This document shows positions 5,229 to 64,000 of a stretch of DNA of 64,000 nt, piece after piece. Source of the DNA: Naegleria gruberi (lineage: Eukaryota); NCBI GenBank assembly GCA_000004985.1, contig GG738921.1. One strand, 5' to 3'. The notes beneath the pieces were generated by a model. It was given only the letters and a program-made list of their open reading frames with translations. It had not been told where the DNA came from and made no database searches. The translations under genes and the position numbers were made by a program. Every line of letters begins with the position of its first letter. Position 1 is the first letter of the stretch.

Positions 5229-6528
5229 ATGAACTCGCTTAGCCTTAATCTTACTTTGCATTGCGGAAGAGATCTTCCAAAGGTAAGAAGAAATTTCATC
5301 ACAATTTGATTTTTTAATGTTTTAAAATTCTCTATTGATTTGTTTACCATATGATGATGTTGTTGTTATTAATTGCATTGAATTTATGATCATCATTTAG
5401 GCCGATTTGTTATCTTCGATTGATGCCTATGCTGTTGTTATTGTTCCGATTATTGGAGGACAAACCAAAACATTTAAAACAAAATGTGTGCAAGATGACC
5501 CAAATCCTGATTGGGAATTTGATTTGTTCTGTACAGATGTGGATGGAACCAGAGATTGTCTTGTTGAAATTTGGGATGAAGATACTTTGAGAAATGAAAA
5601 GGTTTGCACTGCCATACTTTCTCTTGTTGAGTTGAAATCATCAGGCACATGGCTTGGAAAGCATATAGTCTTGAAATGCTTATCTGGATTCAAACCATTC
5701 AAGGGAGCTAAAGAGTGCTGTATTATCGTATCAGCAAGTGCTCACATTTCTTTTGCTGACCTCACTCGCAAAATCACATCTCCAAACAAGTATGTGGATC
5801 CATCAAAAAAGACTATTGTCTTCCCTTTCTCACCTCATGGTGACAATACTCAACTCTATATTAAAATTTCAGCTGGAAAGAGATTCAAGATTTCGGTTTT
5901 GGACACTTCAGAATTTAGAACAAGACTTGTCATGTTTGAAGTTGCTGGAAAGAATATCACTTCTCAAATTATCAAACTCAAAGAACCAAAGAAAAAGTAT
6001 GGAATTAGCTATTATAGAAAGATTAAGATGAAGAAGGCTGACATTAAATCATGGACAAGCGTCAATCTTTTGGTTTCTAATTGTTCACTAGTTGCAACAA
6101 AGGGTGTGGAAGCTATTGTAAATGAACATGGCTGGTATGGATCCATGACCTTTGATCAAGCTAAAAAGACTTTGAAAAATATTATTGTGGATGAGGAATC
6201 TAAGAGTATTTTCATGCTGGAAAACAACTTTAGCTATATGGTGGACTTTGATTCAGACAACTTTGACCAAAAGGTTTGTCTCTCTGATGAATACTCAGCT
6301 CAAGGATATCATGTCGAGTTTGTATATGCAAAGGGAAATAGATTGAGTATCACTTCACATGGAGAACCAAGAGTTCAAACCAATACAAGAGTAGTATATA
6401 GATATTCTTCACAAGTGAAAGACTCTGAATACGGCACTCCATTCTTCCAATTCAGTGTTGAACTCTATCACAAGATACAACCACAACTTTACCAACTCAA
6501 CAGCTATATTCCTTTAAGTTTGAATTAA
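5229..6528 (+). CDS. C2 domain-containing protein; exon 1 5229..5282, intron 5283..5400 (118 nt), exon 2 5401..6528
   Basis: Exon 1 MNSLSLNLTLHCGRDLPK joins exon 2 ADLLSSIDAYAVVIVPIIGGQTKTFKTKCVQDDPNPDWEFDLF..EIWDED, a canonical C2 beta-sandwich N-terminus. Splice sites are GTAAGA..TTTAG. A long ORF continues to the stop at 6526-6528. Confidence 0.7.
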
Positions 6529-9035
6529 ACTTTATTTTGTTGATCTATGAAAAACCTGCTCTTTACACATGTATTGGAACATTCAAGCAAGATAGATTGT
6601 GTCGAAGGAGTAATCAAGGAAAGGAAATAATCATAATCACTCCTTAGTTCTTCAGATGCGAATGCAAAATTGAGAGCTGAGGATGAAACAGCCATTCTAA
6701 CAATATCCTTATCATTTCTTAATCTATTAGATGCGAAAGCTAAAGATGTTGAATCTGAACTGACTGCCAATTTGACAATTTCTTCTGTATCTCTTATTCT
6801 ATCAGATGCATACTTTAGCAGCGAACCACTATTCTTCAAAATGAGAAGCATAAACTTTGTGTCATCATTTAAATTCAATAACAATTTCTCAATAATATGG
6901 CTATCAATACTTTCATGAAACCGTAAAATAGAGGCAATAATTGACTGTGATAGATTTTGTGGATCTACATGTGCAAAAATTCTACCATGACGTCCACAAG
7001 AGGTTAAAATTGTATCCAGTAAATCTTCATCCTCATAATTGAGCATTTCAAAAGAAAAATTGTCGTATGGGTAGAAAACACCAGAATATATCTTGATGAT
7101 ATTCACGTGACTTGAATTAAAGTAGGCAAGGGATGCTTCTTGTAGCCGTTTCACAAAGGGAAGGTAAATCTCTCCCATATTGCAAAAAAAGTAATTCGTA
7201 CCCTTAACTGATTTGGAGCATGGATCCATGCAATAGAGAGCATATTCACCATAATAATCCAATAATTTTTCATTGAAATGATCTCCATAGATGGAAATAA
7301 AGTATTCTCTATCAAAAAATAGCATTGGATGAGCATATTGCAATGAGGGTTTCTTTTGTGATGGTGGCCTGAGCTGTTGATGAAGTAAGACAAGCTCGGT
7401 CTTGAATTCATCCTTTCCAAAAGAACGACAAATAATCATCTCATAAACTTTTTCCTCTCTAAATCCTTGTTTCAATGCCATATTTACACATTCCTTAATT
7501 ATTTCAATGTTTCCCCTTAATGATCTCGAAAAATTTGCAAATGAGAGAGCATTTCTGCTTGTGGCAAATCTCATAAATTCTGAATTGTTCTTTAAATTAT
7601 CAGAAGCAAACTCTATTATTCTCCAATCAATATCATACATCTGTTTGACAAATTCAAAGTCATCTCTCAATTCCAAAGTAGCACACTTAAAAAATGTATA
7701 GCTCCTTCTCACCAACAGTTCAATAAGATGATGATTAGATCTTAATTCTTTAGGAAATTGCATTGCCGTTTTTAAATCAAATGCTGGTAGAATTGATTTG
7801 ATGAATTCTGCATTCTTCCTTATTGAATCACCAAATAAATTCAATATACTTCCATTTTTAGATAAAAGTTCTTTAGCAACAGAAATGGAATTACGAATCT
7901 CTTTCGATACAAACTCAATCAATTCGTGTTCCCTCTTCAATATTGGTAGTATCAAATCTAAATTGCTCCTCAATCTCTCAGATGCATATTTGAGGGCTTT
8001 TGGGTAGAGTCTTGTGACAATTTGTAAAATCTCCTCGTCATCTACCTCAAAGGATCCATCAAAAACATTTTTCAATACACCTAAATCATCTTTGGCATAC
8101 CTGACTACTTCCTTGATGGTGAAAAATCGTTTTGGAATGAAAGAGGGTGGCAATAGCTCCTTCTCAACTACCATTCTCCAAAATTCTTCTCCTTGTGGTT
8201 GGTAGAGTTGTGAAAATTGCTTGTTGTTATCCTTGTTCATTACCAATTTGAGAGCTAGCTCTGAATATATCTCCTTTTTAATCCATTTACATACGTTCAA
8301 CTCTCCATTCTCCAGTGCAGTGCCTACTATCTCTGGGTCTGCTTTAAATTTTGAATTTGAATATCTGAGCACTGATCCGTAATATTTTACAGCTTGTAAC
8401 ACCAATTCCCTATTCGACTTGATTTCTTTTGCCTTCTTTTTCAATTCTGTATCATTTCTCAATTTTTCACACGTCACATATTTGAATATTCTTGTAGTAA
8501 ACCTAAACAATCCAACAATTCCCAACTCATCCTCATCAGAAAAATCAATTTTTCTCCTCACTTTCTGCAAATCATTTCCACACTCAGATAAATCCAAAGC
8601 AGCTTCCAATAATTCTCTATCAGATCGTAACTCTTTACTGGCAGAACGAAAGCAAACCTGATGCTCCTTCACCACACTCATCATAAACTGCCTATCACTC
8701 GTCAATTGCTGTGATGCATATCTAATCAACCACCCTCTCAACATGATCAATTTCTTCATAAATCCAAAATCATTATTTTCAATCAATGGAAATCTTTTCA
8801 CAAAACATCTCACCGAATAATTATCCTCACACTTTTTCAAACATTCAATATATTCCATCTTTTTTTTAAATAATGCTAATTGATCAATTAATCGGAATTT
8901 TCGTAATTTGTGGAAATTAATATTGTGTGAGTAGAGGTTGGAATTCTTGCATGGTTCCGAGAGGTCATCGAGTAGAATAATAACTGGTTCTCGCCATGAT
9001 GATGATGGTACCATCATTGGCATGGTTGTGTCCAT
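6525..9035 (-). CDS. DUF4116-repeat protein (at least 10 tandem repeats of the [FY]AS.ELR.D.E.V..AV unit), single exon
   Basis: 836-aa ORF. Repeats are YASQQLTSDRQFMMSVVKEH, SASKELRSDRELLEAALD, YASERLRSNLDL, FASDNLKNNSEFMRFA, YASDRIRDTEEIVKLAV, FASNRLRNDKDIVRMAV and FASEELRSDYDYF. The stop codon overlaps the stop of the convergent C2 gene by 4 bp. Confidence 0.75.
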   Translation of the reverse strand: MDTTMPMMVPSSSWREPVIILLDDLSEPCKNSNLYSHNINFHKLRKFRLIDQLALFKKKMEYIECLKKCEDNYSVRCFVKRFPLIENNDFGFMKKLIMLRGWLIRYASQQLTSDRQFMMSVVKEHQVCFRSASKELRSDRELLEAALDLSECGNDLQKVRRKIDFSDEDELGIVGLFRFTTRIFKYVTCEKLRNDTELKKKAKEIKSNRELVLQAVKYYGSVLRYSNSKFKADPEIVGTALENGELNVCKWIKKEIYSELALKLVMNKDNNKQFSQLYQPQGEEFWRMVVEKELLPPSFIPKRFFTIKEVVRYAKDDLGVLKNVFDGSFEVDDEEILQIVTRLYPKALKYASERLRSNLDLILPILKREHELIEFVSKEIRNSISVAKELLSKNGSILNLFGDSIRKNAEFIKSILPAFDLKTAMQFPKELRSNHHLIELLVRRSYTFFKCATLELRDDFEFVKQMYDIDWRIIEFASDNLKNNSEFMRFATSRNALSFANFSRSLRGNIEIIKECVNMALKQGFREEKVYEMIICRSFGKDEFKTELVLLHQQLRPPSQKKPSLQYAHPMLFFDREYFISIYGDHFNEKLLDYYGEYALYCMDPCSKSVKGTNYFFCNMGEIYLPFVKRLQEASLAYFNSSHVNIIKIYSGVFYPYDNFSFEMLNYEDEDLLDTILTSCGRHGRIFAHVDPQNLSQSIIASILRFHESIDSHIIEKLLLNLNDDTKFMLLILKNSGSLLKYASDRIRDTEEIVKLAVSSDSTSLAFASNRLRNDKDIVRMAVSSSALNFAFASEELRSDYDYFLSLITPSTQSILLECSNTCVKSRFFIDQQNKV

Positions 9036-14160: not shown

Positions 14161-15953
14161 TCATCTCAGATAAATATCACCATTCTTTTTGAATAGCTGA
14201 TAGAGGTAGGCATCTCTTTGAGGAATTGGAAAACCATTCCTTTCATTCTCCTTCAAGTATTTGAGTCCAAGCTTGTAGAATTTACTGGCTCGGTTGGTAA
14301 TGACCTTGTCCATCATTAATTTTGGAATGGATCCTTTCATGTCAATATAGTAAATCTCATGGAATTTAGTTTCATTTTCCGAGAGGGATTCAAAGAACCA
14401 ACCGCCCACTACACATGCCTTAATGATTTTCTTTTTGGATTTCTCTTGTTTTTCATTGTGTAATTGGTGCTCTGGATTTTCTTCCAAACACAACGAGTCA
14501 CAACTCTTGAATCCTATAATGTACAGATTGCTCACTCGATCGTGTACTGAGCTGGTGCAGACAATGATTTCTCGATCCTTGATTGGCCAAATGAGTTTGT
14601 ACTTTTCATGATTTATGACTGATGTGAAGAGTTTGTCCTTTGTTTGAATGTGAGGCTCTTCAACATATTTCACCGTTTGAATATCATAAATGTACTCATC
14701 TATCTTTTGTCTATATTCTTGATTGGTAAAAGTTTTCAAAACTTGTTTTACATTGTAAGGAAAGAGAATTTCAAATTTGAAAAATTTCAATCCAACACTA
14801 TTTCCAAAATCATACTTGTCTTTTGTAAAGTAGCACTTGTATTGTTTCTGATTGACTGCCAAAATCCATTCTCTATTGTTGATAGTTTCTCCACAAAACA
14901 CTTTTCTTTTAAGGAAGGCAAAATCACCAAGTGAAAAGTTTTGATTTTTCAAATCGGCCATTGATTCAACAGCCATATACTCTATACCTTCTTTGAGGGT
15001 CCCAATTTCATGTAGAATATCAATGGTCTTGCCACTTTTTATCAAGTAATTATGAAACAAGTCACTTTTCAAAAAACCATGGAAATAATTCAACTTGAGT
15101 GATTCGTGAATAAACATTTCAACCTTTCTAAACAAGTTTTCTGGATTATCGGCATGCTCTTGGAAACACTTTTTGAATGAATTGATGGTTTTCTCTTTCA
15201 AAGTGTGTGGTAAATTGATTCTTTAGGTGAAATATTGCAAATGAAAGTTTCAATAATGCTATTGGCAATTTTCTCAACCTTTTCGAATTTTTCCATTGTT
15301 ACAAAAGAGCTAGACATCCGATCGTAATTTTTGTCTGAAATGTTGTGTGGAATCATTACACCGTTGTGAGCTATTTCATCACTGTCAATGACATCTAGAA
15401 ATGTCATTGAAATTCCATCATGTGACAGCTCATCCTCATGGGATTCAACAGATGAAAGAGAAACATTGGAAATTACAGAAGAGGAAGTATTCTTTCCTTC
15501 AATCAGTGAAGGGGGATTGAAACTAGAGGGAGTGGACGAAACCAAATACTGTTTACATATAAATCTGTAATGTTTGGCGCTTTCCAAGAATTCTACAGCT
15601 TCTTCCATCTTTTTAGTTAGTAGAAACTGCTTAAATATCGAATAGATTTGTTTGTGAGTGATAACTGCTTCGTAGCTGTAATGGAAATTCGAAAGATCTT
15701 GTTCATCAATCACTTTACTATTCGAATGTTGTTTTGATGAGGAAGATGCTGAAGATATATCATCTCTGGAATGCTCAATCTCATATCCCTCGTCTATATC
15801 AAGTAAATGTTGAGTGGAAAAGAATTTTCCTGGTAAATGTGAAGTTTGGCTGATAGTTGTGGACATTGAAGACATGGGTAAAAGATCAAGGTGTGATGGT
15901 TCACTGTTGCTCTTGAAGGCAGAAGTGTGATGCATGGTTTGACTTGATGGCAT
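14161..15953 (-). CDS. RGS domain + START (lipid-binding) domain protein; reading frame broken by an apparent 1-nt frameshift inside the RGS domain near 15198-15201 (possible pseudogene or assembly indel)
   Basis: Upstream ORF (15198..15953) encodes the RGS N-half: IYSIFKQFLLTKKMEEAVEFLESAKHY, IIETFICNISPKESIY. Downstream ORF (14161..15201) continues without any gap in the RGS alignment: KEKTINSFKKCFQEHADNPENLFRKVEMFIHESLKLNYFHGFLKS. It then has a START-like C-terminus, DMKGSIPKLMMDKVITNRASKFYKLGLKYL. There is no GT donor or room for an intron at the frame change. Confidence 0.6.
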
Positions 15954-16088
15954 TTTGTTTTTTCAAAGAAAAGTCATTTCAGTAAGTTTCGCCGTAAAGC
16001 AGGTTCTAATTGGTTAAATTTTGAAATCCTATTTAAGGCAAAAGACCGCCATTAGGTTATATCAGTGATTTTGAGATCTCAATCGTAA

Positions 16089-16160
16089 GCCGCTATAGCT
16101 CAGAGGAAGAGCTTCGATCTCCTAAGTCGAAGGTCGCCGGTTCGAGCCCGGCTAGTGGTA
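16089..16160 (+). tRNA. tRNA-Arg(CCU)
   Basis: GCCGCTA TA GCTC AGAGGAA GAGC T TCGAT CTCCTAA GTCGA AGGTC GCCGG TTCGAGC CCGGC TAGTGGT A. Cloverleaf with anticodon CCT flanked by T33 and A37, and a canonical GGTTCGAGCC T-arm. The acceptor stem has two G-U pairs. Confidence 0.75.
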
Positions 16161-16734
16161 TAATTTTTTATTTTTGTCCATTTTCCATCGACCTTTTCAC
16201 GAGTCTTTGATGTATTTTTCATCCTTCAAGTTTGCTCCTTAATTATTAGTACATTTATGAGAAATGAATATTTAAATTGATTTTAAATTGTAAAAAAATA
16301 TTTCTAATAATTTCTTCTTGATTGTTCTCGTCTAATAATCCTTGACCAAGAATTCTTTCCATCTATTTGCAAACCTAAATTCATTCTATCATGTAATATT
16401 GCTCTATTTCATTGTACTTATTCAAGAAGTTTCACTCATTTCAGGCATTAGGAAGATTTCTAATATCAATGGCAATATTATATTGTTTCGAACCCTTTTT
16501 GGCTAATTCATCAACATGTCCTTTTACCTTTTCCAATTTAATTTCCAAATATTGTTCTATCAAATTCATCTTTAAAAATTGAAAATTTCCCATCATATCT
16601 TGGATTTAGAAATAACATAATGAAGGAGAAAGCAAAAAGAAAAAACTTGTGGCAGAGAAACGATAACTATGGACTTGGAACATTGCAATCACGATTTGGT
16701 TGTAAATCTATTCATTCAAACATCCTGCTTCCTC

Positions 16735-18040
16735 TTATTCCTCTTCTGCTTCCTCTTCTCTATTGTATCCAAATGGATGACAAGTTTTTCTACTCATTAA
16801 GGCAAGACAACAATTTACAACATATTCATAGTAAGGCTTTCCATCTACATGGGTTAGTTTGGGTTGATAGTAGGCTCTTTGTATTGTGCTTCCTGAACTT
16901 GTAAGTGATTGAAATGTATTTTTGAAAACATAGAATGATTCTGTGTGGAAATCAGAATTTGCAAATATTGCTTTAACTTTGATTGATTCCAATTCGTTTT
17001 CTTTGTCATTGTAATCAAATGAAGATAGATATAGGTATATTGATGAGTTTTCTCTAAAATCCTTAACCTCTGTTAATTATCGCGTAGAGAAATACAGTGT
17101 TTGTAACTAATTTCATAAAACTACTTACTTTTGGCAACACCCAAGTGATCGAAACAAGCTGAAAACTTGGCCCCAAATGCTGTGAACTTATCTGAATAAC
17201 AACATCTATCAATATTATCAGGACTAACACGAAATGTCAAAGTATGTATGGATAATGGAAACTCTGCTGCCCATCTATGAACAATAGGAGGATAATTAGT
17301 TGAGGATAATTCCTTTCTTCCAACATGGAACATTTCAATATTGTTGAAAGGTTTGAATGGTTCTTCCTCAACTTTCTTCATCCCAACCACAAATTTAAAC
17401 TTGAGAAAATCATCATCATCTGTTGAGTAAGCGGCAATATGAGTCTTATCAAGAAATACTCCATAAGATGCTTCAGGCATAATGAATTTTCTGCTGTGAA
17501 CAAGATAGGATTGAGGTTCTAGATCAAAATTACAAATAAAAAAGTCGAGTCTTATTCTATCAAATACCTGTTGCTTATTCTCTACTGGAATTGTGGAATT
17601 AAGTGTTAAAAATACTGTAGAATTGCCCAAACATTCATCTTCATCATCTGTTTCCGATTAGACAATTAGAAAATTAATAAAACGCAACATACCTGGCAGA
17701 AGGTCCACAACCCACTCGTGTCCAAACTGTATGAAAGGTTCAGAATAATAGCTAGTATTAAAAGGGCCAGTTTTTGGTACCTTAACATCTGCAATATGAA
17801 TGGTATAATCTTTTTTCTGTGGTGGAATATTCTCCTGCACAAATTGGTAAAGGTCTTCTCCTATAGGTTTCAATATTGGCTCAATTTCTGTTTCTGTGAA
17901 CTCTGTATCTATTTTTGCTTTCTTTTCTGCAATAAGTTCTAAGGTTTTCTTAGAAGATTTGAAAAATTCATTGGACATAACTAGGTTGATAAAGTCCAAA
18001 ATGCTATCATTTTGTGGGAAATGATCCACTACTGCAATAA
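16735..18040 (-). CDS. Hypothetical protein, at least 3 exons (approx 17658..18040, 17129..17630, 16735..17069; introns approx 17631..17657 region and 17070..17128); 5' end runs into N-gap 18041-18828 and may be the 3' part of the F-box/LRR gene
   Basis: Long ORFs 17658..18029, 17121..17630 and 16735..16992 are joined in frame by GTATGT/GTAAGT..ACAG introns: ..HLGVAK|(K)VKDFRENSS..ESIKVKAIFANSDFHTESFYVF... The first ORF stays open into the gap. No recognisable domain. Confidence 0.4.
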
Positions 18041-18828
18041 NNNNNNNNNNNNNNNNNNNNNNNNNNNNNNNNNNNNNNNNNNNNNNNNNNNNNNNNNNNN
18101 NNNNNNNNNNNNNNNNNNNNNNNNNNNNNNNNNNNNNNNNNNNNNNNNNNNNNNNNNNNNNNNNNNNNNNNNNNNNNNNNNNNNNNNNNNNNNNNNNNNN
18201 NNNNNNNNNNNNNNNNNNNNNNNNNNNNNNNNNNNNNNNNNNNNNNNNNNNNNNNNNNNNNNNNNNNNNNNNNNNNNNNNNNNNNNNNNNNNNNNNNNNN
18301 NNNNNNNNNNNNNNNNNNNNNNNNNNNNNNNNNNNNNNNNNNNNNNNNNNNNNNNNNNNNNNNNNNNNNNNNNNNNNNNNNNNNNNNNNNNNNNNNNNNN
18401 NNNNNNNNNNNNNNNNNNNNNNNNNNNNNNNNNNNNNNNNNNNNNNNNNNNNNNNNNNNNNNNNNNNNNNNNNNNNNNNNNNNNNNNNNNNNNNNNNNNN
18501 NNNNNNNNNNNNNNNNNNNNNNNNNNNNNNNNNNNNNNNNNNNNNNNNNNNNNNNNNNNNNNNNNNNNNNNNNNNNNNNNNNNNNNNNNNNNNNNNNNNN
18601 NNNNNNNNNNNNNNNNNNNNNNNNNNNNNNNNNNNNNNNNNNNNNNNNNNNNNNNNNNNNNNNNNNNNNNNNNNNNNNNNNNNNNNNNNNNNNNNNNNNN
18701 NNNNNNNNNNNNNNNNNNNNNNNNNNNNNNNNNNNNNNNNNNNNNNNNNNNNNNNNNNNNNNNNNNNNNNNNNNNNNNNNNNNNNNNNNNNNNNNNNNNN
18801 NNNNNNNNNNNNNNNNNNNNNNNNNNNN

Positions 18829-20288
18829 CAACATTCTCGTTGGTTACCCTTACATTAAGAACCTTTAGAGAACTCCTAGGTAAATGAGGAATAACTGAAG
18901 CTTCAAAGGCCTCACCTAAAACTTCTTCCAGTTTGCAATTTACTATTGCTTGGATATTTTGATGAATAATTTTATCTTCGAACTGTTCACCTTGCAGATC
19001 CAAAATTTTTAAATCTTCACAGTCATGGAAAAAGAATGGTTCCTCTTCAATATCAATATAAGTATCAGTATGGTACAGCAGTTTTTCCAAATGTTGTCCT
19101 ATTAAAGCCTTAACAACATTAAAACAAATTATTTCGTTAGTACCTCCATAAATTTTAAGAATTCTGAGTTGTAAACAACTTTTCAATTGTTCCAAAATAT
19201 CTTCTTTTAAAATTGTAAATTGAAAATTTCTCGGAAATTGTAATGTTAATTTAGACAACTTAGAGAGATTACAGAGACAACCTAGCAATGTATCTAACTC
19301 ATATGAGGGATCATATTCATTAGTGAAAACAACATTCAATCTTTCTAATGTTCTTGAAAGGAGACCCAAATTCTTTTGAAGATTCAATATTGTTTCATCA
19401 GAAGTTGATTTCCATGCCACCTTGAGCTTTTTCAAATGGGAGAATGAATTAGATGAAAATACTGAAAAGAATGAACCAGTTATATTTGATAGTGTGTCTC
19501 GAGCAAAGAGGGAAAATTTTTCAATCTTTTGTGAAACATTGGAAAGTACTAATGACAGGATAGAATCATCAAAATAACTAGGGTTGATAACCAAAACTGT
19601 TAAATTTGGACATTGTTGTGTGATATCCTCAATATTCTTGCGTGTTAGTGGATAGTTAGAACGAAACTCTGTCAAAGATTGAGGAAACCCAATCACGGTT
19701 TGATCCATTTCTTCTTCATGGAGCTTTCGTTCAGATACAAGACGCATCAACTCGAGAGTTTTTAAATTTTTAAACTCTTTCAACAAGTGAAAATATTCAG
19801 TTTTAAGATTAGTAAGTGTCAATACTTTCAAAGATTCCAACAATGGACTTGCATTCATTATCCACTCAACAATGAAACTTCCAGACACGCAAGTTGCAGC
19901 ACTCAACCTCAACTCTTCCATTGACAATCGTCCAAGCTCACACAAACCCACATCTAAAAAAGCATATATTAATCGACCATTCATAAATAATAATAATAAA
20001 TTGATAACAATTACCTGTTAATGACCAGAAATCCAAAGAATTGAATGTAAACAAATCAATAACCTTCAATCGTTTCATCTTGATCAGTAAATTATCCACA
20101 ACTCCTCCGATCCTATGATTATCCAATCCGATGTGAATAAAGTATTGAGTCTTGTTATTCAGGAAATAATACCAGATCCACTCGGCAAAAGTCTTTGAAA
20201 TAAATCTCATCTGCAGCAAGTGGTATTCATTGAAAAAACATAGCAAGTGTTCGGCACACAAATCACAAGGTAAATTCTGAATTTTCAT
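18829..20288 (-). CDS. F-box / leucine-rich-repeat protein; exon 1 20015..20288 (F-box), intron 19954..20014 (61 nt), exon 2 18829..19953 (LRR), 3' end continues into N-gap 18041-18828
   Basis: Exon 1 carries the F-box LPCDLCAEHLLCFFNEYHLLQMRFISKTFAEWI. Exon 2 carries ~12 LRR-like units: LKVLTLTNLK, LKTLELMRL, LTVLVINPS, LKKLKVAWK, LSKLTLQFP, LQLRILKIYG, LKILDLQGE, LKVLNVRVTNE. The GTAATT..TTTTTTAG junction is phase-consistent. Confidence 0.65.
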
Positions 20289-20727: not shown

Positions 20728-23700
20728 GTGATGGACTGGTTGTTGCCAATATTTTTGACTTTTTCATTCTTTTCAAAATTGAAAAAAATGTTGAAGAGAA
20801 CAAGTACCAGCCTTCAACCCAAGAGAAAATTCGGAGGCTCTCTCCTATCAACAGTGCACAATACCAATGGCACCAACTCTAGGGCAACCAATAGAATTAA
20901 TCATCATGTTGGTTGTCTTTTTTCGAATCCTTCCGTTGGCTTTCATTCAACTATGGGAATTAATTCATCATCATCATCGAATATTAGTACAACAACAACA
21001 TCATCTAATACTACTACTACTTCGAGTAAAAGAACATCAAATAATAATAATATTCAATCGATTAATATTGGAAATATTAATTTATATTCATCAACATCCG
21101 TTCAGGAAGGTGAACAAACAATAGAGCAAGAATTGTTAATACCAAATTATTCATTATTTGGAGAGGATGTTTCACAATTGGATCAACAGAAGGACATTCT
21201 TTCACATCTCAAGTGGATGGCAATGAAGGATAAGATGAAACAGGACATGTTTTTGATTGGACATTACGGAGAATTGAAGAGACATTTGGCATTTACATAT
21301 TGCCAGTTGGCTAGAAGAAGTGTGGAATATGTTTGTATCACTAAAGATACAAGTGAACACGATTTTAAACAAAGAAGAGAAATAGAGACAGGTTCTGCTT
21401 TTTATGTGGATCAAGCTGCTGTTAGAGCTGCAAAGAATGGCTCAGTTTTGATTTTGGAAGGAATTGAAAAGGCAGATCTCAACATTTTGCCAATTTTGAA
21501 TAATCTGATGGAGAATAGAGAAATGGCCCTCGAATCTGGAACCATGCTCATCTCTCCACAACGTTATAAACAATTAATCGAAGAGGAGGGGAAAACACCA
21601 GAAGAATTAAAATTAATGAAGATTGAACCAGTTCATGAAGATTTTAGAATTATTGCTATGGGATTGCCTGTTCCATATTATGATGGAAATACTTTGGACC
21701 CTCCATTGAGATCGAGATTTAATGCTAGAGTTATTGATTTACCATCAATGGAGTCAATCTTCAGTTCCTTGGTCAATCATAGAACCAATGACCAAGTTCT
21801 TTCATTTCTCAGCAATGAACAAAAGAAGAGTCTCTTCTTGTCTCTCATTCAATTCACTCAGTCTATTGTCCATTTGGATAACATGCTGATGAATAGTAAG
21901 GATGCTGTAAATACCAATAGCAAGACTGGCTCTATTGAATTGCTCCCAAGATTTCCAATCGATAATTTGAAGAATTTAATTGAAATGTTGAATGATTACA
22001 GATCGATATTTGCTTCCTCTGTTGAGAATGTCGAAAGTCTCATCCATACCTTATATCCTTTCGAACTCTTCATGTCGAGAGAGAAGGACAAATCTGAAGA
22101 TGAAAAATTAGAGCAAAACAAAATGATTGAAATTATTAAGGAGCAATTGAAGGAGTGCTCGACCAAAATTCATGAAATAATTTCTCAAGATTTCTCTCCA
22201 GCATCATCTTCTGACCAGAAACAAGAATTAATTGGAAATCTTTTATCTCAAGCTAAGGCCACTCACTTTAAAGATATTGGATTTGTTCTGATTGAAAAAC
22301 ATAGACAAGTTCTCACTGAAATGATGAGATCTCATTTGTGTGGAAAGGATATGTGCTTGATTGGAGGCAAGGGTTCAGGAAAATCACTCATTTCTCATGC
22401 CTTTGCAAGTATGGTTGGCTACAAGGCAGTTGTCTTTCCAATGTACAAGGAAATGACTTCGAAGGATTTGCTACAAAAAAGAGGAACAGACTCGGCAGGT
22501 AATACCATTTGGAAAAATTCAGTGCTCATTGACTCAATGATTGATGGCTCGCTGTGTATCTTGGACGGCATTGATAGAATGAGTACAGATATTTTGCTTT
22601 CCATTCAAACTCTTATTCAAGATCGTGTATTGTACTTGTTCAATGGAAATCGTTATGTTTCACATGAATATTATGACAAGTTCCTTTCTCAAGGATTTAC
22701 CAAAGAAGAGTTGAGCAGCAAGGGAATTTATAGAATTCATGAGGATTTTAGAATTATTGCTATCGGATTAAATGATTCCCTCAAGTGGCTCTCATTAGAA
22801 TTATTCAACTTGTTCCATTTCCATACTGTTCCAAAACTTTCCATTGAAGAGGAGGTAGATTTGTTGAGTTCTAGAGTTGGAGCTGATGCATCTAGCCAAA
22901 ATTTGATTAATGCCCTAATCAGAATCAAGAATGATTACAATAACACAGAATTCAACCAAGACCAGCGTTTAATTTCCATGAGAGATTTGATTAGAATTGT
23001 CAAGAGAAGTATGATTTTCAAGGATGAATGCATTTTGACCGCCATAGAAAGAACTACCATGACCTACTTGTTACCAAAGCACCATTTGGAATTATTAAGA
23101 AAATTGGCTATCAAGTACAAGGTTTCACACAATCAAAACACCCCAACTGATAAGCCAGTTCATATCGAAAAGACTGACACTCACATACAAATGGATGATA
23201 TCAAAGTTCCAATTAATTTAAATGCCAATTTATTACTGGTTCCAAAGCCATACTTTGTGCAGACAGAACAACATGCCATTGTGATGAAAGCCATGCTCAA
23301 GGATCATCTCATTGGTGATCACAGTTTACTCATTGGCTATCAAGGTGTTGGTAAAAACAAGATTACAGATCAATTTTTAAATTTGCTCCAATGTGAAAGA
23401 GAGTACATGCAACTCCATCGTGACATTACCATTGCTTCTCTGACAGTTCAACCTTCTGTTGTGGATGGAGTTTTGACCTACATTGATTCTCCACTTGTTA
23501 AAGCTGTTCGCCACGGAAGAATTCTAGTTTTGGATGAAATTGATAAGGCACCTTTGGAAGTTGTTTCAATTTTAAAGTCACTAGTTGAGGATGGAAATAT
23601 GGTTCTCGGAGATGGAAGAACAATTGTAACCATGAAGGAATATCAAAAGAGAAAGCAACAAAATGATCCACATTTACACAAACTCTTACCAATCATGAAG

Positions 23701-26700
23701 GGATTTAGAATTATTGCATTGTCCAATCCTCCAACATTCCCATTCCATGGAAATTCATTCTATGATGCTAGTGGTGATATTTTCTCTAATCACTATGTTA
23801 GTAATCCAAGAGGTGACAGTGAAATCAAATTGTTGCAAAGTTATGGACCAGATGTTCCATTGTTGATTATCAAAAAGTTGAGCGGTGCCTTTGATGATTT
23901 ACGATTGGCAGTCGAAGAGGGTGTCATTCAATATCCATACTCTACAAGAGAATTGGTTCATATCGTCAAACATTTACAAGCATTCCCTAACGAGGCAACT
24001 CTTCAAGATGCACTTGCTAATGTTTTCGATTTTGACTCATTTGATAGAGAAACTCTTGAATTCTTGGCCAAAGTTTTCCAAAAACATGAAATTCCAGTAT
24101 CATTCAACAATATTGGTGAGTAGTTTCAAAAGATTTTCAAAGTGCATCAACAATATTCCTTCTTCAGAACAATTTTCTATTAGGATGGCCCAAGAAGTTC
24201 CACTTGTAAAAACCAATGAAGGAAAAAACATTTGTTTTCTAAGTTCGAGTAAGTTTTCTTTTTTCTTTCCCATACTTAACCTGAGAAAGATCCAAAATTG
24301 ACCTCAAGTTGTGAAATTCAAAACGTACCATATTTTATTAGAAATTACACAAGTAATCAAATGTATTACGATGAACCAGATTCTGGAGCTTTTGCTACAA
24401 AAAATCCAGCAGACAAATTTACAAATTTGATGGAATTTAGTGAATTGAGATATATCATTAACTTGCCATGCAACAAGGCTAAAGAAATTGTTTCTTTGGA
24501 AGATTCTGTACATGTCTTTTCAACATCAAATCCATTTGGAATGATTCATTTTGAGAGTAATGCATGTGATTCATTCAAAGTGACCGAGTTGTACTATATT
24601 CAATCTAAATTGGGTCCAAACTTGAGTTTTGTTTCTCTTAAAAACATCAAGGTAGTTGCCTTATTTTCTGCTAAACTTGCTAGACCAGACAGGTTCAAAG
24701 TCGATACTCAATCCAATTTCATAGACACTGATGTGTATGCACTGATTTATCATCCAAAACTCAATAAGAAATTTGAATTGGACTTTTCATATAGTCAATT
24801 CGTTCAAAATTCTCTGCATAAGGATGTGAGAAGTTTACCGATTCAAATTCTAACAGAATTTACCGATAGCCATTCAATGGTTGGAATCTATCAAAGTGGA
24901 TCAAGAACAATTCAATTAATTGATATGAGCTCATGGGATCCTTCCGTTCCTATCAAAAGAGGTACACCTCCACATAATTCTAAGAGTATCCACTTGCCTT
25001 TTAACATAGACACCGTTAGATGGCTCTCACCAAATACATTCCTGGTTTTAGAGTATGGTGGTGTGAGTAATTATTGGAAAGTTGTGGAATTGAATGGAAA
25101 TTCTGTGGAAATTAAGGATGTAAGCGACATGTCAACAATATCTCTCAAGGAGTATCATGTAAACTCGAGCGGAAAGGAAAATCTCATTTTTGCTCAACCA
25201 TTTATCAAGGAGAATACTCCTCAAGAAGTATATTTGAGAAAGATTGCGAGAAAGGATGATTTACTCACTATTGAAACTGATTTATCTCTTCAAAAAGGAA
25301 ATCCAAAAATTGTCAATGTACAAACCAAGTATTTGAAGAAATCCAACCAATTGGTTCTCCTACATCACGATAACGATGGTCTTCCTACATTGGATGTATT
25401 GAATTTTGAAAGGAATACTTATCGTAGAGTAACTCCCCCTGAGAGAAAGTCCAAAGTTGCACCTTCTTTCGATTCTTCCAAGTCTCGATTTGTAGACCTT
25501 TCCAATGGATACATTGCACTCTTAGATGAGGAAAACAAACTCTTCTTATTCAATTTGAATGTGGACAAGTTAGCAGAGGAAGCTATCAGCTGGAAAAAGT
25601 TCCACACTTCTGGTACCTCTTCTGACTCTCTCAAAATCGAATATATTCAACAAGACAAGGAAGCTAGCTTCCCTAAACACGGAAAAATTGATGATTTGCC
25701 TCATGTTGGAGGTAATACTTTTGCGGGTGGCTCTGGAGGGTTTGATACTGCCGGCTTAGCAGGCGCTGGAGGTCCATACCGATTATACAAGGAGGGAAAT
25801 CCAATTGTTCAAGTTTCCGATGAAGTGAAGAATAATGTTAGTAAGGAAATTTTGGAAAGAGCCAGAGCCATGGCAGAACAAGCATACAAGAAGAGATTGC
25901 AAGAAATTGACATGACAGCGCATGAAATGAACTTGTACTCTCAATATAAGAATAATGTGAGCCAGCAAATTGATCAACTGAGAAAAACTCTTGCAGGATT
26001 AAAGTGGAGAGATGAAGAGGAGGAACGTGTTTGGATTAAAAATCAAACAACAGGTGAAATTGATGATAACAAGATTGTGGAAGGAATTGTTGGAGAAAAG
26101 AACATTTACAAGAGGAGAGCCAATGAAAATGAAAAGAGAAAATCAAATCTTCCTAAAAAGAAGAAGCTACTCCACTTTGTAATGGATGTTTCTGGTTCAA
26201 TGTATCGATTCAATCATCAAGATGAAAGATTGGACAAAATGTTGGAAATTGCTGTCATTATTATGGAAAGTTTTAAAGGATTTGAGGACAGATATGAATA
26301 CAAGATTACAGGGCACTCTGGACAAACAAGTTGTTTGGAATTGGTCAAAAGAGGAGCTCCACCAAAAGATGAAAAGGAACGTCTCAAGGTTCTTCTTAAA
26401 ATGCATGCTCACTCGCAATATTGTTGGAGTGGAGATACGACAGTGCGAGCAATTAGAGATGCTTCAAAGAATGAGGAAAATGATTTTGTTTTTGTCTTTT
26501 CAGATGCCAACTTATCAAGATATGGAATTTCACATCAAGATATTGCTGTTCATTTGAAGAAGAATACCTTTATCATTTTCATTGCATCCATGTTTAATGA
26601 AGCACAAGAACTCAAGCAAGGTCTTCCATCTTCCAATAGTTTCGTATGTTTGGATACACGAGAATTATCAACAACTTTCAAGAAGATCCTATCTCAAAAC

Positions 26701-28706: not shown

Positions 28707-28779
28707 GCCGACATAGCTCAGTTGGGAGAGCGTAAGACTGAAGATCTTAAGGTCCCTGGTTCGATCCCTGGTGTCGGCA
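28707..28779 (+). tRNA. tRNA-Phe(GAA)
   Basis: GCCGACA TA GCTC AGTTGGGA GAGC G TAAGA CTGAAGA TCTTA AGGTC CCTGG TTCGATC CCTGG TGTCGGC A. Canonical Phe D-arm, anticodon GAA, perfect acceptor and anticodon stems. One T:T mismatch in the middle of the T-stem. Confidence 0.75.
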
Positions 28780-55423: not shown

Positions 55424-57949
55424 TTAATTCTCCAAAGTGTTCTCCGTATCATTGAAATCTTCCATTGTTGCAACAGATGACAATCTCAAACAATTCATGA
55501 ATAGTGTTTCAAATTCTTCATAAGTGGTTATTTGTGAAGGAATATCAAATGAGAAAGAACATGTATGGGCTTCAAATCTTTTTTGCTCACGAATTGAGAT
55601 CTTTCTTGAAAAACCTCTAATCGGAATGCTTGAAAGTGCTGTCATCCAAACAAGTAATTGTCTCAATTGACTATTTGTTAATTTTCTTATACATTTAGTG
55701 AGGAAATCTTTCATAGTTTCCGAAACAAAATAGAAATTAATTTCATTTAACAATAAATCATCATCAATATATGATTGACCTGATAGGAGAATTTTCAATT
55801 CATTCACACTCAAATCTTGTTCAACAAAGTTTGGTCCTTGAAGGTGGAAAAATTCTCTCAATTCAGATTCAGTTGAAATACTAAAACTACAAATCAATTG
55901 AGTTTTGAATTGTTTCAAATTGAACCAATCAAATCCTTCTTTGATTAATTTCAATTTTTCCATTCTTATAGCACTGTAAAAGTATGGATGTAATTGAGAA
56001 ATGATATAGAGATGGATATTGTCCATAATAAGTGGTTTCTCAGTCTTTGATAAAACATCTGTGAACGTTTCTTCATATGCAATAGATTGTAATTCCTTAT
56101 CATTCTTACATTTTCTCAGATTCATAATTTGATTATCTAATTCAAAATCATATTCTCTCAAGAATTTTGAAAGTGTCAAGATCATGTCATTGATGTGTAG
56201 TGCTTGTTTCTTATAAATTATATCACCATTCAATAAATAATAGAATATAAAACTATTCAATGGAAGATAAACTGTCTTGTCGTCACAGTCAATTAATAAC
56301 TTTTTCAATAACCATCCAAAGGCCTTTAACTGAATTCTTGATTCATCTGTGAGTGGTTCATCAGTTAGAATGAAATTTTCGTTGGAAGATGTTTCACTCT
56401 TTTGAAAATGTTTGCTTTCCATTAACATGGATTCAGTATATTTGGAATAGAGTTCATTTGACAAACCTCCTACGTCTATCCCTTTCTCTTCCTTAAATTT
56501 TACAAATGTTTTGTAAAATATTGAATAGTTGTTATCTTTAGTCATGACTTTTTCAACAGTTAAAGAAGTATCTGTCAATAAATTTTCTCTGTCTATGTCA
56601 AATCTAATTTCGTTGCTAGGTGAAACTAAATAACCTTCTCTTCGGGCTAACGCAAGTTGTTTGAGTTTTTTCAATCTTGCCTGCCACAATGATAACTTTT
56701 CGGAGCTATCTAGTTTTTGATTTGATGTAGAAAGTAATTCGACAGTAATTGGATTTTCATTTGTGAAATAATCTCCATTTTCATTCACCAAAATATTTTG
56801 AGGTTTTAAATCTCTGTGAAGAATATCTTTGGAATGAATAAATTGAAGTGTTTCCGTGATTTTTCTAAATAAACTTCTCAACATGATTTTCAAAGTTTTA
56901 GTGTCGTGTTGAGGTTTAATCTTGTTGACATATTCCAATAAATTTCCATTTGAATAATATGGCGTTTCAATATAAATCTTATTAAAATTAGGTTCGATGA
57001 ACACACCATTCAATTTGATAATTCTTGAATGTACTTTCAATCTTACAATATTCATAATTTCATTCATAATAGCATCACAATTATTGTCTGTTGATTGAGA
57101 AAGTGAAATTTCTTTAAGAATAACCACTTGATTGTTTGACTTGCTTGATTTGTAGACAACTGATAATCCACTATGAACTGTTCCCATGATTGTATAATTT
57201 GAAAATTGAGTATTAAAAAGAAATATTGAGTTTTGAAGTGCAAATATTCTGAATTTTTCTTCAGGTGTGTTGCTTGTTGAAATAACAACACCATCTGCTG
57301 TTAGTGGTTGTTTCATTTCTACAATTATTTCTGGGAATGTTGAAATCAATTCCATTAAATTCTGTTCAATTTCTGTTTTTTGTTCATTCAATTCGGAAAT
57401 CTTTTTTCCCATTTCAGAAAGTTTCTTCTCCAATCTTTCAATATCTTCATTGTTTGTTCCAATTTTGTTTTTTCTAAGCTTTTTAATTTGAAGTCCAATT
57501 TCGTCCTTTTCCAAATCAATTTCATCAATGTCGTCCTTAATTAAGGCAAGTGATTTTAAAAGATCTTTCTTTTTCAATTTCAACTTGTTAATATTTTGAA
57601 AACATTCAAGATTTGTTGCATTTTCTCTAATGTTATCTTCCATTCTCTCAACTTGTTCCAACAATTCCTTGTTGTCCTTATCAAATTCACTTAATTTTCC
57701 AGAATAGTTTGTAATTATTTCGTCTCTAATTCTATCTCTCTCTTCAGTAAGTAGATACAACTCTTTAAATTCAACACTCTTTTCACAAGCGGACATTTCA
57801 GAGATTTGTTTTTCGATTCTATTTAATTCTTTTTTGAGCAAATGAATAGTTTGAGCTGATTTTGGAATTCTCACAACTGGTTCAACAACTGTAATACGAC
57901 TTGCTTCCATTAATTGATTTTCCAAAATTTTGATTCGTTCTAAATGTTC
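55424..57949 (-). CDS. Paralog (copy B) of the coiled-coil / kinase / HECT protein, with an in-frame ~117-codon deletion removing the kinase DFG/activation-loop/APE/C-lobe; 5' end lost in N-gap 57950-62085
   Basis: Same coiled-coil (LECFQNINKLKLKKKDLLKSLALIKDDIDEID..), kinase N-lobe and catalytic loop (VVILKEISL, HRDLKPQNILVNENG). It then jumps directly to DYFTNENPITVELL at about 56775. An intact HECT domain follows: GIDVGGLSNELY, ..FEAHTCSFSFDIPSQITTYEEFETLFMNCL. The ORF remains open into the gap at its 5' side. Confidence 0.75.
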   Translation of the reverse strand, partial: EHLERIKILENQLMEASRITVVEPVVRIPKSAQTIHLLKKELNRIEKQISEMSACEKSVEFKELYLLTEERDRIRDEIITNYSGKLSEFDKDNKELLEQVERMEDNIRENATNLECFQNINKLKLKKKDLLKSLALIKDDIDEIDLEKDEIGLQIKKLRKNKIGTNNEDIERLEKKLSEMGKKISELNEQKTEIEQNLMELISTFPEIIVEMKQPLTADGVVISTSNTPEEKFRIFALQNSIFLFNTQFSNYTIMGTVHSGLSVVYKSSKSNNQVVILKEISLSQSTDNNCDAIMNEIMNIVRLKVHSRIIKLNGVFIEPNFNKIYIETPYYSNGNLLEYVNKIKPQHDTKTLKIMLRSLFRKITETLQFIHSKDILHRDLKPQNILVNENGDYFTNENPITVELLSTSNQKLDSSEKLSLWQARLKKLKQLALARREGYLVSPSNEIRFDIDRENLLTDTSLTVEKVMTKDNNYSIFYKTFVKFKEEKGIDVGGLSNELYSKYTESMLMESKHFQKSETSSNENFILTDEPLTDESRIQLKAFGWLLKKLLIDCDDKTVYLPLNSFIFYYLLNGDIIYKKQALHINDMILTLSKFLREYDFELDNQIMNLRKCKNDKELQSIAYEETFTDVLSKTEKPLIMDNIHLYIISQLHPYFYSAIRMEKLKLIKEGFDWFNLKQFKTQLICSFSISTESELREFFHLQGPNFVEQDLSVNELKILLSGQSYIDDDLLLNEINFYFVSETMKDFLTKCIRKLTNSQLRQLLVWMTALSSIPIRGFSRKISIREQKRFEAHTCSFSFDIPSQITTYEEFETLFMNCLRLSSVATMEDFNDTENTLEN

Positions 57950-60900
57950 NNNNNNNNNNNNNNNNNNNNNNNNNNNNNNNNNNNNNNNNNNNNNNNNNNN
58001 NNNNNNNNNNNNNNNNNNNNNNNNNNNNNNNNNNNNNNNNNNNNNNNNNNNNNNNNNNNNNNNNNNNNNNNNNNNNNNNNNNNNNNNNNNNNNNNNNNNN
58101 NNNNNNNNNNNNNNNNNNNNNNNNNNNNNNNNNNNNNNNNNNNNNNNNNNNNNNNNNNNNNNNNNNNNNNNNNNNNNNNNNNNNNNNNNNNNNNNNNNNN
58201 NNNNNNNNNNNNNNNNNNNNNNNNNNNNNNNNNNNNNNNNNNNNNNNNNNNNNNNNNNNNNNNNNNNNNNNNNNNNNNNNNNNNNNNNNNNNNNNNNNNN
58301 NNNNNNNNNNNNNNNNNNNNNNNNNNNNNNNNNNNNNNNNNNNNNNNNNNNNNNNNNNNNNNNNNNNNNNNNNNNNNNNNNNNNNNNNNNNNNNNNNNNN
58401 NNNNNNNNNNNNNNNNNNNNNNNNNNNNNNNNNNNNNNNNNNNNNNNNNNNNNNNNNNNNNNNNNNNNNNNNNNNNNNNNNNNNNNNNNNNNNNNNNNNN
58501 NNNNNNNNNNNNNNNNNNNNNNNNNNNNNNNNNNNNNNNNNNNNNNNNNNNNNNNNNNNNNNNNNNNNNNNNNNNNNNNNNNNNNNNNNNNNNNNNNNNN
58601 NNNNNNNNNNNNNNNNNNNNNNNNNNNNNNNNNNNNNNNNNNNNNNNNNNNNNNNNNNNNNNNNNNNNNNNNNNNNNNNNNNNNNNNNNNNNNNNNNNNN
58701 NNNNNNNNNNNNNNNNNNNNNNNNNNNNNNNNNNNNNNNNNNNNNNNNNNNNNNNNNNNNNNNNNNNNNNNNNNNNNNNNNNNNNNNNNNNNNNNNNNNN
58801 NNNNNNNNNNNNNNNNNNNNNNNNNNNNNNNNNNNNNNNNNNNNNNNNNNNNNNNNNNNNNNNNNNNNNNNNNNNNNNNNNNNNNNNNNNNNNNNNNNNN
58901 NNNNNNNNNNNNNNNNNNNNNNNNNNNNNNNNNNNNNNNNNNNNNNNNNNNNNNNNNNNNNNNNNNNNNNNNNNNNNNNNNNNNNNNNNNNNNNNNNNNN
59001 NNNNNNNNNNNNNNNNNNNNNNNNNNNNNNNNNNNNNNNNNNNNNNNNNNNNNNNNNNNNNNNNNNNNNNNNNNNNNNNNNNNNNNNNNNNNNNNNNNNN
59101 NNNNNNNNNNNNNNNNNNNNNNNNNNNNNNNNNNNNNNNNNNNNNNNNNNNNNNNNNNNNNNNNNNNNNNNNNNNNNNNNNNNNNNNNNNNNNNNNNNNN
59201 NNNNNNNNNNNNNNNNNNNNNNNNNNNNNNNNNNNNNNNNNNNNNNNNNNNNNNNNNNNNNNNNNNNNNNNNNNNNNNNNNNNNNNNNNNNNNNNNNNNN
59301 NNNNNNNNNNNNNNNNNNNNNNNNNNNNNNNNNNNNNNNNNNNNNNNNNNNNNNNNNNNNNNNNNNNNNNNNNNNNNNNNNNNNNNNNNNNNNNNNNNNN
59401 NNNNNNNNNNNNNNNNNNNNNNNNNNNNNNNNNNNNNNNNNNNNNNNNNNNNNNNNNNNNNNNNNNNNNNNNNNNNNNNNNNNNNNNNNNNNNNNNNNNN
59501 NNNNNNNNNNNNNNNNNNNNNNNNNNNNNNNNNNNNNNNNNNNNNNNNNNNNNNNNNNNNNNNNNNNNNNNNNNNNNNNNNNNNNNNNNNNNNNNNNNNN
59601 NNNNNNNNNNNNNNNNNNNNNNNNNNNNNNNNNNNNNNNNNNNNNNNNNNNNNNNNNNNNNNNNNNNNNNNNNNNNNNNNNNNNNNNNNNNNNNNNNNNN
59701 NNNNNNNNNNNNNNNNNNNNNNNNNNNNNNNNNNNNNNNNNNNNNNNNNNNNNNNNNNNNNNNNNNNNNNNNNNNNNNNNNNNNNNNNNNNNNNNNNNNN
59801 NNNNNNNNNNNNNNNNNNNNNNNNNNNNNNNNNNNNNNNNNNNNNNNNNNNNNNNNNNNNNNNNNNNNNNNNNNNNNNNNNNNNNNNNNNNNNNNNNNNN
59901 NNNNNNNNNNNNNNNNNNNNNNNNNNNNNNNNNNNNNNNNNNNNNNNNNNNNNNNNNNNNNNNNNNNNNNNNNNNNNNNNNNNNNNNNNNNNNNNNNNNN
60001 NNNNNNNNNNNNNNNNNNNNNNNNNNNNNNNNNNNNNNNNNNNNNNNNNNNNNNNNNNNNNNNNNNNNNNNNNNNNNNNNNNNNNNNNNNNNNNNNNNNN
60101 NNNNNNNNNNNNNNNNNNNNNNNNNNNNNNNNNNNNNNNNNNNNNNNNNNNNNNNNNNNNNNNNNNNNNNNNNNNNNNNNNNNNNNNNNNNNNNNNNNNN
60201 NNNNNNNNNNNNNNNNNNNNNNNNNNNNNNNNNNNNNNNNNNNNNNNNNNNNNNNNNNNNNNNNNNNNNNNNNNNNNNNNNNNNNNNNNNNNNNNNNNNN
60301 NNNNNNNNNNNNNNNNNNNNNNNNNNNNNNNNNNNNNNNNNNNNNNNNNNNNNNNNNNNNNNNNNNNNNNNNNNNNNNNNNNNNNNNNNNNNNNNNNNNN
60401 NNNNNNNNNNNNNNNNNNNNNNNNNNNNNNNNNNNNNNNNNNNNNNNNNNNNNNNNNNNNNNNNNNNNNNNNNNNNNNNNNNNNNNNNNNNNNNNNNNNN
60501 NNNNNNNNNNNNNNNNNNNNNNNNNNNNNNNNNNNNNNNNNNNNNNNNNNNNNNNNNNNNNNNNNNNNNNNNNNNNNNNNNNNNNNNNNNNNNNNNNNNN
60601 NNNNNNNNNNNNNNNNNNNNNNNNNNNNNNNNNNNNNNNNNNNNNNNNNNNNNNNNNNNNNNNNNNNNNNNNNNNNNNNNNNNNNNNNNNNNNNNNNNNN
60701 NNNNNNNNNNNNNNNNNNNNNNNNNNNNNNNNNNNNNNNNNNNNNNNNNNNNNNNNNNNNNNNNNNNNNNNNNNNNNNNNNNNNNNNNNNNNNNNNNNNN
60801 NNNNNNNNNNNNNNNNNNNNNNNNNNNNNNNNNNNNNNNNNNNNNNNNNNNNNNNNNNNNNNNNNNNNNNNNNNNNNNNNNNNNNNNNNNNNNNNNNNNN

Positions 60901-62754: not shown

Positions 62755-62943
62755 TTGGGTTTGGGTTTGGGTTTGGGTTTGGGTTTGGGTTTGGGTTTGG
62801 GTTTGGGTTTGGGTTTGGGTTTGGGTTTGGGTTTGGGTTTGGGTTTGGGTTTGGGTTTGGGTTTGGGTTTGGGTTTGGGTTTGGGTTTGGGTTTGGGTTT
62901 GGGTTTGGGTTTGGGTTTGGGTTTGGGTTTGGGTTTGGGTTGA
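62755..62943 (+). repeat. (GGGTTT)n / (TTTGGG)n telomere-type hexamer tract (~31 units), internal, followed by 50-nt N-gap
   Basis: Perfect tandem GTTTGG repeats begin at ..CCTTAGTTGGG|TTTGGG. Unique AT-rich sequence lies 5' of it. G-rich strand is on +, running 5' to 3' toward the window end. Confidence 0.85.
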
Positions 62944-62993
62944 NNNNNNNNNNNNNNNNNNNNNNNNNNNNNNNNNNNNNNNNNNNNNNNNNN

Positions 62994-63636: not shown

Positions 63637-64000
63637 TTTGGGTTTGGGTTTGGGTTTGGGTTTGGGTTTGGGTTTGGGTTTGGGTTTGGGTTTGGGTTTG
63701 GGTTTGGGTTTGGGTTTGGGTTTGGGTTTGGGTTTGGGTTTGGGTTTGGGTTTGGGTTTGGGTTTGGGTTTGGGTTTGGGTTTGGGTTTGGGTTTGGGTT
63801 TGGGTTTGGGTTTGGGTTTGGGTTTGGGTTTGGGTTTGGGTTTGGGTTTGGGTTTGGGTTTGGGTTTGGGTTTGGGTTTGGGTTTGGGTTTGGGTTTGGG
63901 TTTGGGTTTGGGTTTGGGTTTGGGTTTGGGTTTGGGTTTGGGTTTGGGTTTGGGTTTGGGTTTGGGTTTGGGTTTGGGTTTGGGTTTGGGTTTGGGTTTG
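63634..64000 (+). repeat. Terminal (GGGTTT)n telomere-type repeat tract running to the end of the window (at least 60 units)
   Basis: Uninterrupted GGGTTT hexamers from 63634 to 64000. G-rich strand is oriented 5' to 3' toward the right end, as expected for a right-arm chromosome terminus. Confidence 0.85.

Follow-up and report, generated by a model that had tools for sequence, protein, structure and literature searches.

Gene, domains and reading frames

The stretch of DNA analysed here, referred to as the window, comprises 64,000 nucleotides (nt) of Naegleria gruberi (NCBI GenBank assembly GCA_000004985.1, contig GG738921.1). On its minus strand, at 14161-15953, lies a gene for a protein with an RGS and a START domain, the reading frame of which is interrupted in the deposited sequence by the loss of one nucleotide. 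The gene extends from an ATG at 15953-15951 to a TGA stop codon at 14163-14161, as delimited by its open reading frames (ORFs), the colinearity with an ortholog and the Pfam matches to RGS and START, and has 597 codons after the nucleotide is restored. As deposited it consists of two minus-strand ORFs, ORF1 (15198-15953, 251 amino acids, starting with ATG) and ORF2 (14161-15201, 346 amino acids), which are in different frames and overlap by 4 nt. No further stop codon occurs in either frame, 251 and 353 codons being open in DNA of 35% GC. In a homology search, ORF2 matched the last 345 residues of a predicted N. gruberi protein in NCBI at 100% identity. The two ORFs together encode a single RGS-START protein. 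A preliminary description of the locus had recognised one RGS-START gene disrupted by a single-base indel, with no intron and with adjoining ORFs one nucleotide out of frame; this core reading holds and its ORF coordinates are exact.

The restored protein starts with a Ser/Thr-rich leader (residues ~1-92, 15678-15953), followed by the N-terminal half of the RGS domain (Pfam positions 1-40, residues 93-132, 15558-15677). An acidic, Ser-rich insertion of about 84 amino acids (residues 133-216, 15306-15557), also present in the ortholog, separates this half from the C-terminal half of the domain (Pfam positions 37-117, residues 217-303 of the repaired protein, 15046-15305), which contains the break. 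The START domain follows, with a Pfam match at residues ~361-571 (14242-14874) and a fold that extends over ~14182-14931 according to the structure model and the Foldseek matches described below. Of the two ORFs, ORF1 carries RGS positions 1-40 and ORF2 carries RGS positions 69-117 plus START.

The gathering cut-offs of Pfam are 23.9 bits for RGS (PF00615) and 22 bits for START (PF01852). Separately, the two RGS halves stay below the cut-off with 21.1 and 17.6 bits, whereas the joined protein passes. The preliminary description had proposed a profile check of the frame-corrected protein, and in this check RGS reaches 56.5 bits, above the cut-off. A profile of the family to which the gene belongs matches R4-type RGS proteins with E-values of about 1e-13 to 1e-14, and PDB entry 1AGR is among its matches. 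For START the Pfam score is 24.1 bits (E = 2.7e-5), and the family profile matches STARD10 (E = 1.9e-5). An AlphaFold2 model of the ORF2 frame, built with 33 family sequences, has a mean predicted local distance difference test score of 84.7 and a predicted template modelling (TM) score of 0.78. It displays the helix-grip alpha/beta fold, and residues 6-88, which correspond to the C-terminal RGS helices, are helical. The top 47 Foldseek matches of this model in the PDB are all START domains, foremost STARD10, CERT, STARD5, STARD4 and StAR, with probability 1.00 and target-normalised TM scores of 0.62-0.78; StarD13/DLC2 is found at rank 29. One RGS domain that is cut by a change of frame, with a START domain after it, is real and far beyond chance.

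The ortholog used for comparison comes from a metagenome (P0002; ENA ERZ27315067, contig k141_915386, here L001, with the gene at 238-1686 and another exon upstream of it). In this ortholog, as in N. gruberi, an RGS domain with insertion is followed by START in a colinear layout. The ortholog is 55% identical overall and, in the START half, about 61%. Its frame is single and unbroken across the site where that of N. gruberi is broken, with equal spacing of the motifs around this site (KE-LNLAYGT-KEK in the ortholog and KE-xNLPHTL-KEK in N. gruberi). The ortholog differs from the N. gruberi gene in having a 42-nt GT...AG intron (L001 182-223) in the N-terminal half of the RGS domain, between ...KKKME and EAIEFLES.... 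N. gruberi does not have this intron, which was thus either gained or lost in the time that separates these close relatives. The genomic context also differs: the downstream neighbour of the ortholog is a TTL gene, and neither this gene nor another downstream gene of 769 residues has a match within the window.

Position of the frame break

The lesion can be placed at 15217-15221 on the minus strand by five lines of evidence, namely the frame switch in a tblastn search, a DNA alignment with the ortholog, the gain in RGS score, an invariant asparagine of the family and a match to RGS16 and RGS18. With the ortholog as query, tblastn aligned residues 1-125 to 15587-15219 in the ORF1 frame and residues 126-482 to 15219-14164 in the ORF2 frame. 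The DNA alignment with the ortholog contains exactly one gap, of 1 nt, at which N. gruberi has AAA GAA TC- AAT TTA and the ortholog has AAA GAG TTG AAT TTG. The deposited sequence at the break is AAAGAATCAATTT, which can be divided as AAAGA-ATC-AATTT, with 3 nt between AAAGA and AATTT. After the codon GAA of Glu245 (15221-15219) only TC (15218-15217) is left of the codon that precedes AAT, the codon of Asn247 (15216-15214). The loss of one nucleotide between Glu245 and the invariant Asn247 splits the gene, as deposited, into the two ORFs.

The asparagine codon at 15214-15216 encodes an invariant residue of the family in the loop between alpha5 and alpha6 of the RGS domain (column N155 of an 11-sequence alignment, with Asn in 11 of the 11 members). 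It is read only in the ORF2 frame and aligns to the N of "KEVN" in RGS16 and RGS18. We take this residue to be the equivalent of RGS4 Asn128, a key contact with G-alpha in the RGS4-Galpha-i1 complex (PDB 1AGR). No gap is needed to align the repaired peptide IIETFICNISPKEINLPHTLKEKT with IFEEFICSEAPKEVNIDHETRELT of human RGS16 and KEVNLDFHTKEVITNS of RGS18, and the corrected motif PKE-[I/V]-NLPHTL-KEK fits the RGS "PKEVNL" motif, the intact metagenomic ortholog and ten paralogs. In view of these alignments, the lesion is best described as a deletion of 1 nt in the codon directly before the invariant RGS asparagine.

The preliminary description had located the break at 15198-15201, about 20 nt away from the real site, which lies further 5' according to tblastn, the DNA alignment, the RGS score and the invariant asparagine. 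A join at 15217-15221 gives the RGS score of 56.5 bits, as compared to 46.1 bits for a join at the position proposed before and 42.6 bits for a join there with an extra residue. The difference can be understood from a three-frame translation. Because of the deletion further 5', the ORF1 frame runs into the TGA at 15198-15200, and the 18 nt at 15201-15218, which are read as "SIYHTL" in that frame, are out of frame. The gapless RGS alignment that was reported to cross the ORF boundary thus included a part in which ORF1 is read beyond the lesion; "HTL" is present in both frames because of a CACACAC run. Similarly, the CTTTG run (15198-15203) that had been taken for the lesion, as a homopolymer, is only the place where the ORF1 frame stops. 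On the other side, the frames cannot switch further 5' than a TAA at 15223-15225 in the ORF2 frame. The ORF2 frame is open from 15222, after this TAA, and encodes R-I-N-L-P-H-T-L-K-E-K there.

The public gene model and the cause of the frame break

The NCBI protein of which ORF2 forms the C-terminal part is NAEGRDRAFT_53933 (P0001; XP_002669944.1, D2W1C0), with a length of 948 amino acids. Exon mapping placed its exons at 20210-20016, 19993-18896, 17984-17634 and 17420-17124, after which the model jumps to 15198-14164. The 1,932-nt "intron" that is passed over (15195-17126, minus strand) starts at a donor GTAAGT (17126-17121) that overlaps the upstream gene's own stop codon TAG (17123-17121, after ...GVAKSK) and ends at an AG acceptor with its G at 15195. 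It contains the whole of ORF1 and, on the plus strand, a tRNA-Arg(CCT) gene detected by ARAGORN at 16089-16160. The distance between this tRNA gene and the start codon of the RGS-START gene is 136 nt; the tRNA gene lies upstream and in the opposite orientation. In the upstream, leucine-rich-like part of NAEGRDRAFT_53933 no significant Pfam domain was found. NAEGRDRAFT_53933 is a chimera of two unrelated genes and an annotation artefact provoked by the frame break; we call it an artefact because in the intact ortholog a single contiguous ORF holds the two RGS halves and START. The split frame drove the gene predictor to this solution. The model hides a complete RGS-START gene and should be split, with the frame break flagged or corrected. 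It also clearly illustrates that the lack of a single base from a draft assembly can give rise to a chimeric model with several exons, which is then passed on to UniProt and EukProt.

Further copies of the locus were sought in several ways. The homology search for the locus returned only the chimeric NCBI model and the one ortholog, which is 51-61% identical. Exact-product look-ups gave no record for ORF1, nor for the neighbouring ORFs 18029-19984 and 6525-9035. A scan of Joint Genome Institute (JGI) metagenomes with a protein pattern gave 600 pattern matches and no true relative, a DNA pattern that brackets the break and allows 2-5 nt had no match in these metagenomes, and a literature search by locus identifiers found nothing. 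Metagenome run ERR1078381 (L002/L003; ENA ERZ929261, Logan, project PRJEB11402) represents independent Illumina data for N. gruberi NEG-M or a near-identical strain. It contains a paralog that is identical to NAEGRDRAFT_65731 of NEG-M at 639 of 641 positions, the differences being a one-Ser indel and one substitution. The RGS-START locus itself is evidently not covered by the ERR1078381 assemblies, because the homology search would otherwise have returned their ORFs.

Several explanations can be considered in which the deposited sequence is correct and the gene, or a part of it, is still expressed. If the public model were right, the leucine-rich gene upstream (17124-20210) would now have the START ORF as a 3' exon, connected through the 1.9-kb intron, and ORF1 would be a dead remnant. 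The model exists and has a consensus-like donor and an AG acceptor, but its donor overlaps the natural stop codon of the upstream gene, its product would keep RGS positions 69-117 only, which is half a domain, and its intron would hold a complete conserved ORF for the RGS N-half as well as the tRNA-Arg gene. Moreover, the RGS halves and START of the ortholog directly follow each other within one ORF, and the only intron read in the RGS-START family is 42 nt long. We consider the model highly improbable as a description of the gene. Slightly less credible still is a combination in which the organism does carry the deletion and also uses the annotated splice (from GTAAGT at 17126 to the AG whose G is at 15195), through which the upstream leucine-rich gene would have captured half of the RGS domain plus START as a 3' exon; if true, this would offer a snapshot of domain shuffling right after gene disablement. 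Programmed -1 ribosomal frameshifting or transcriptional slippage could yield the full-length protein from the sequence as deposited, and the required shift is indeed -1 with both ORFs intact. However, the stretch TCA CCT AAA GAA TCA contains no X XXY YYZ heptamer and no homopolymer long enough for slippage, the folding of the 95 nt further downstream is no more stable than that of shuffled sequences (minimum free energy -9.4 kcal/mol, z = +0.56), and no change of frame occurs over this stretch in the ortholog, which leaves recoding with a very slight chance. The least probable of all, and refuted by the sequence itself, is a spliceosomal intron that spans the junction and restores the frame upon removal. 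Tiny introns do exist in the lineage, as the 42-nt intron elsewhere in the RGS domain of the ortholog illustrates, but there is no room for one here since conserved coding sequence continues to 15219 in the ORF1 frame and resumes from 15219 in the ORF2 frame. The earlier statement that no GT..AG intron fits is borne out by the coding strand, which lacks any GT from 15277 to 15170. This leaves a single candidate of 58 nt, from GT at 15278 to AG at 15221, the removal of which would take the reading into the third frame and eliminate the conserved VEKIANSIIETFICNISPK.

All explanations other than a consensus error or heterozygous allele and a fixed young pseudogene are improbable even when taken together. 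We estimate the probability at about 0.5 that the missing base reflects an error in the consensus of the unfinished draft or belongs to one allele of a heterozygous diploid, and is thus not a feature of the working copy in the organism. The deletion should either be absent from the working copy or be extremely recent, because no other lesion occurs over 1.8 kb and the sequence is conserved to either side as far as the gap. It is plausible that the assembly captured a null allele, because Naegleria is described as mainly heterozygous diploid (PMC9928731). Three points weigh against this reading. The homology, exact-product and JGI metagenome searches gave no independent copy of the locus from which the presence of the base in the organism could be shown. 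The deletion lies outside any long homopolymer and would at most have turned AAA into AA, if the lost base was an A, so there is no special ground for a base-calling error. Finally, young real pseudogenes are to be expected because the 229 RGS genes of N. gruberi (de Mendoza et al. 2014, PMC3971589) make the family highly redundant. The last point leads directly to the strongest competitor, in which the deletion is real and fixed in NEG-M. The gene would then be a very young unitary pseudogene, with ORF1 as a truncated non-functional RGS fragment and a START ORF that is not translated. The deposited sequence carries the deletion, the lesion abolishes reading of the invariant asparagine and of all that lies downstream, and the loss of one copy should be tolerated among so many RGS genes and RGS-START paralogs. 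Nevertheless, multiple lesions or lost conservation, by which a pseudogene could be recognised, were not found. A single 1-nt deletion in about 1.8 kb of AT-rich DNA, with frames that are otherwise open and conservation with the ortholog up to the gap, fits only a very recent event, and we give this possibility somewhat less than an even chance. On balance we lean slightly to a consensus error or a heterozygous allele over a very recent real deletion.

The RGS-START family, surrounding DNA and comparison with known systems

An exhaustive HMMER search with the ortholog gave 90 clusters (representatives at 50% identity) at E <= 1e-3. A Pfam scan of 89 relatives detected RGS in 73 and START in 45, the best E-value for START being 7.6e-16. 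All members that were looked up by name are from Naegleria or Willaertia, namely N. fowleri, N. lovaniensis, N. gruberi and Willaertia magna, the latter with many paralogs. The N. gruberi gene has RGS and START in the same colinear order as these proteins and significant full-length similarity to them, which by sequence identifies it as a member of an RGS-START family so far found in Naegleria and Willaertia (Heterolobosea). The paralogs FDP41_013009 (N. fowleri), C9374_000684 (N. lovaniensis), ABK040_012065 (Willaertia magna) and NAEGRDRAFT_65731 (N. gruberi) have RGS followed by START and are 32-37% identical. The heterolobosean paralogs share with the N. gruberi gene the invariant asparagine and many START residues, and their frames are all intact. 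Their low-complexity insertion is located elsewhere, after the helix of the Asn loop, whereas that of the gene described here and its ortholog is between RGS Pfam positions ~40 and ~37. A BLUF blue-light sensor domain occurs in 3 of the 89 relatives, and kinase or glutaredoxin/thioredoxin domains occur in single members; these hint at light- or redox-linked variants of the family.

The preliminary description regarded the combination of RGS and START as unusual. This does not agree with a heterolobosean family of about 90 clusters, nor with the literature, in which START is already listed among the domains that were repeatedly joined to RGS in divergent taxa (PMC3971589). The N. fowleri genome was reported to encode 79 more RGS-domain proteins besides the class of seven-transmembrane (7TM)-RGS proteins (PMC9283941). 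This locus itself brings nothing new on the RGS-START family, the architecture of which is a known one and frequent among Heterolobosea. The family as such, expanded in Naegleria and Willaertia, may merit study within the very large G-protein signalling repertoire of Naegleria.

Other features of the window are mentioned here for completeness. A C2-domain protein is encoded by a plus-strand ORF at 5407-6528, a protein with seven DUF4116 repeats (E = 8e-60) by a minus-strand ORF at 6525-9035, and a large AAA_5 ATPase (dynein-related/midasin-like) by a plus-strand ORF at 20728-24123. A tRNA-Phe(GAA) gene is present on the plus strand at 28707-28779. Near the end of the window are two perfect arrays, an interstitial (TTGGGT)x31 at 62755-62941 and (TTGGGT)x61.5 at 63632-64000, which reaches the window end. 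Both are preceded by very AT-rich DNA (GC 14-17%, region 56000-64000). In permuted form, the unit TTGGGT corresponds to TTTGGG, which was reported as a candidate for the telomere repeat of N. gruberi (PMC3622300). The end of the window is probably also that of a chromosome, the G-rich strand pointing outward in the 5' to 3' direction.

A possible mode of action of the intact protein can be proposed from its domains. The RGS domain, which is R4-like with its PKE-x-NL motif, would bind GTP-bound G-alpha and accelerate GTP hydrolysis. The helix-grip pocket of START would bind a lipid or sterol and thereby localise or gate the GTPase-activating protein (GAP) function. Not every RGS domain acts as a GAP (PMC3971589). 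For the repaired domain GAP activity is plausible from its sequence but not assured, because several of the positions that we take to be RGS4 contacts with G-alpha differ, as judged by eye (Asn88 to Ala, Asp163 to Asn and Arg167 to Gly), and lipid binding by START is likewise a prediction.

Among known RGS proteins, those of the R4 subfamily (RGS16, RGS18 and RGS4; PDB 2ik8, 2jm5 and 1agr) are most similar. The likeness resides in the motif F-I-C-x-x-(S/A)-P-K-E-(I/V)-N-(L/I)-x-H, which is almost identical to that of RGS16, where "PKEVNIDH" matches the repaired N. gruberi peptide without a gap. The R4-subfamily proteins have no START domain, and the N. gruberi gene also differs from them by the 84-residue insertion inside its RGS domain. 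With the START lipid-transfer domains of STARD10, CERT/STARD11, STARD4/5 and StAR the protein has the helix-grip fold in common, at an identity of only 12-17%. A parallel to the complete architecture is found in the DLC proteins (STARD12-13), in which a GTPase-inactivating domain is N-terminal to a START domain. The RhoGAP-START protein DLC2/STARD13 has the same domain order, but its partner domain acts on Rho whereas that of the N. gruberi protein is predicted to act on heterotrimeric G-alpha. By analogy to RhoGAP-START proteins of the DLC/STARD12-13 type, START would tie the activity of the RGS domain to the state of a lipid or membrane.

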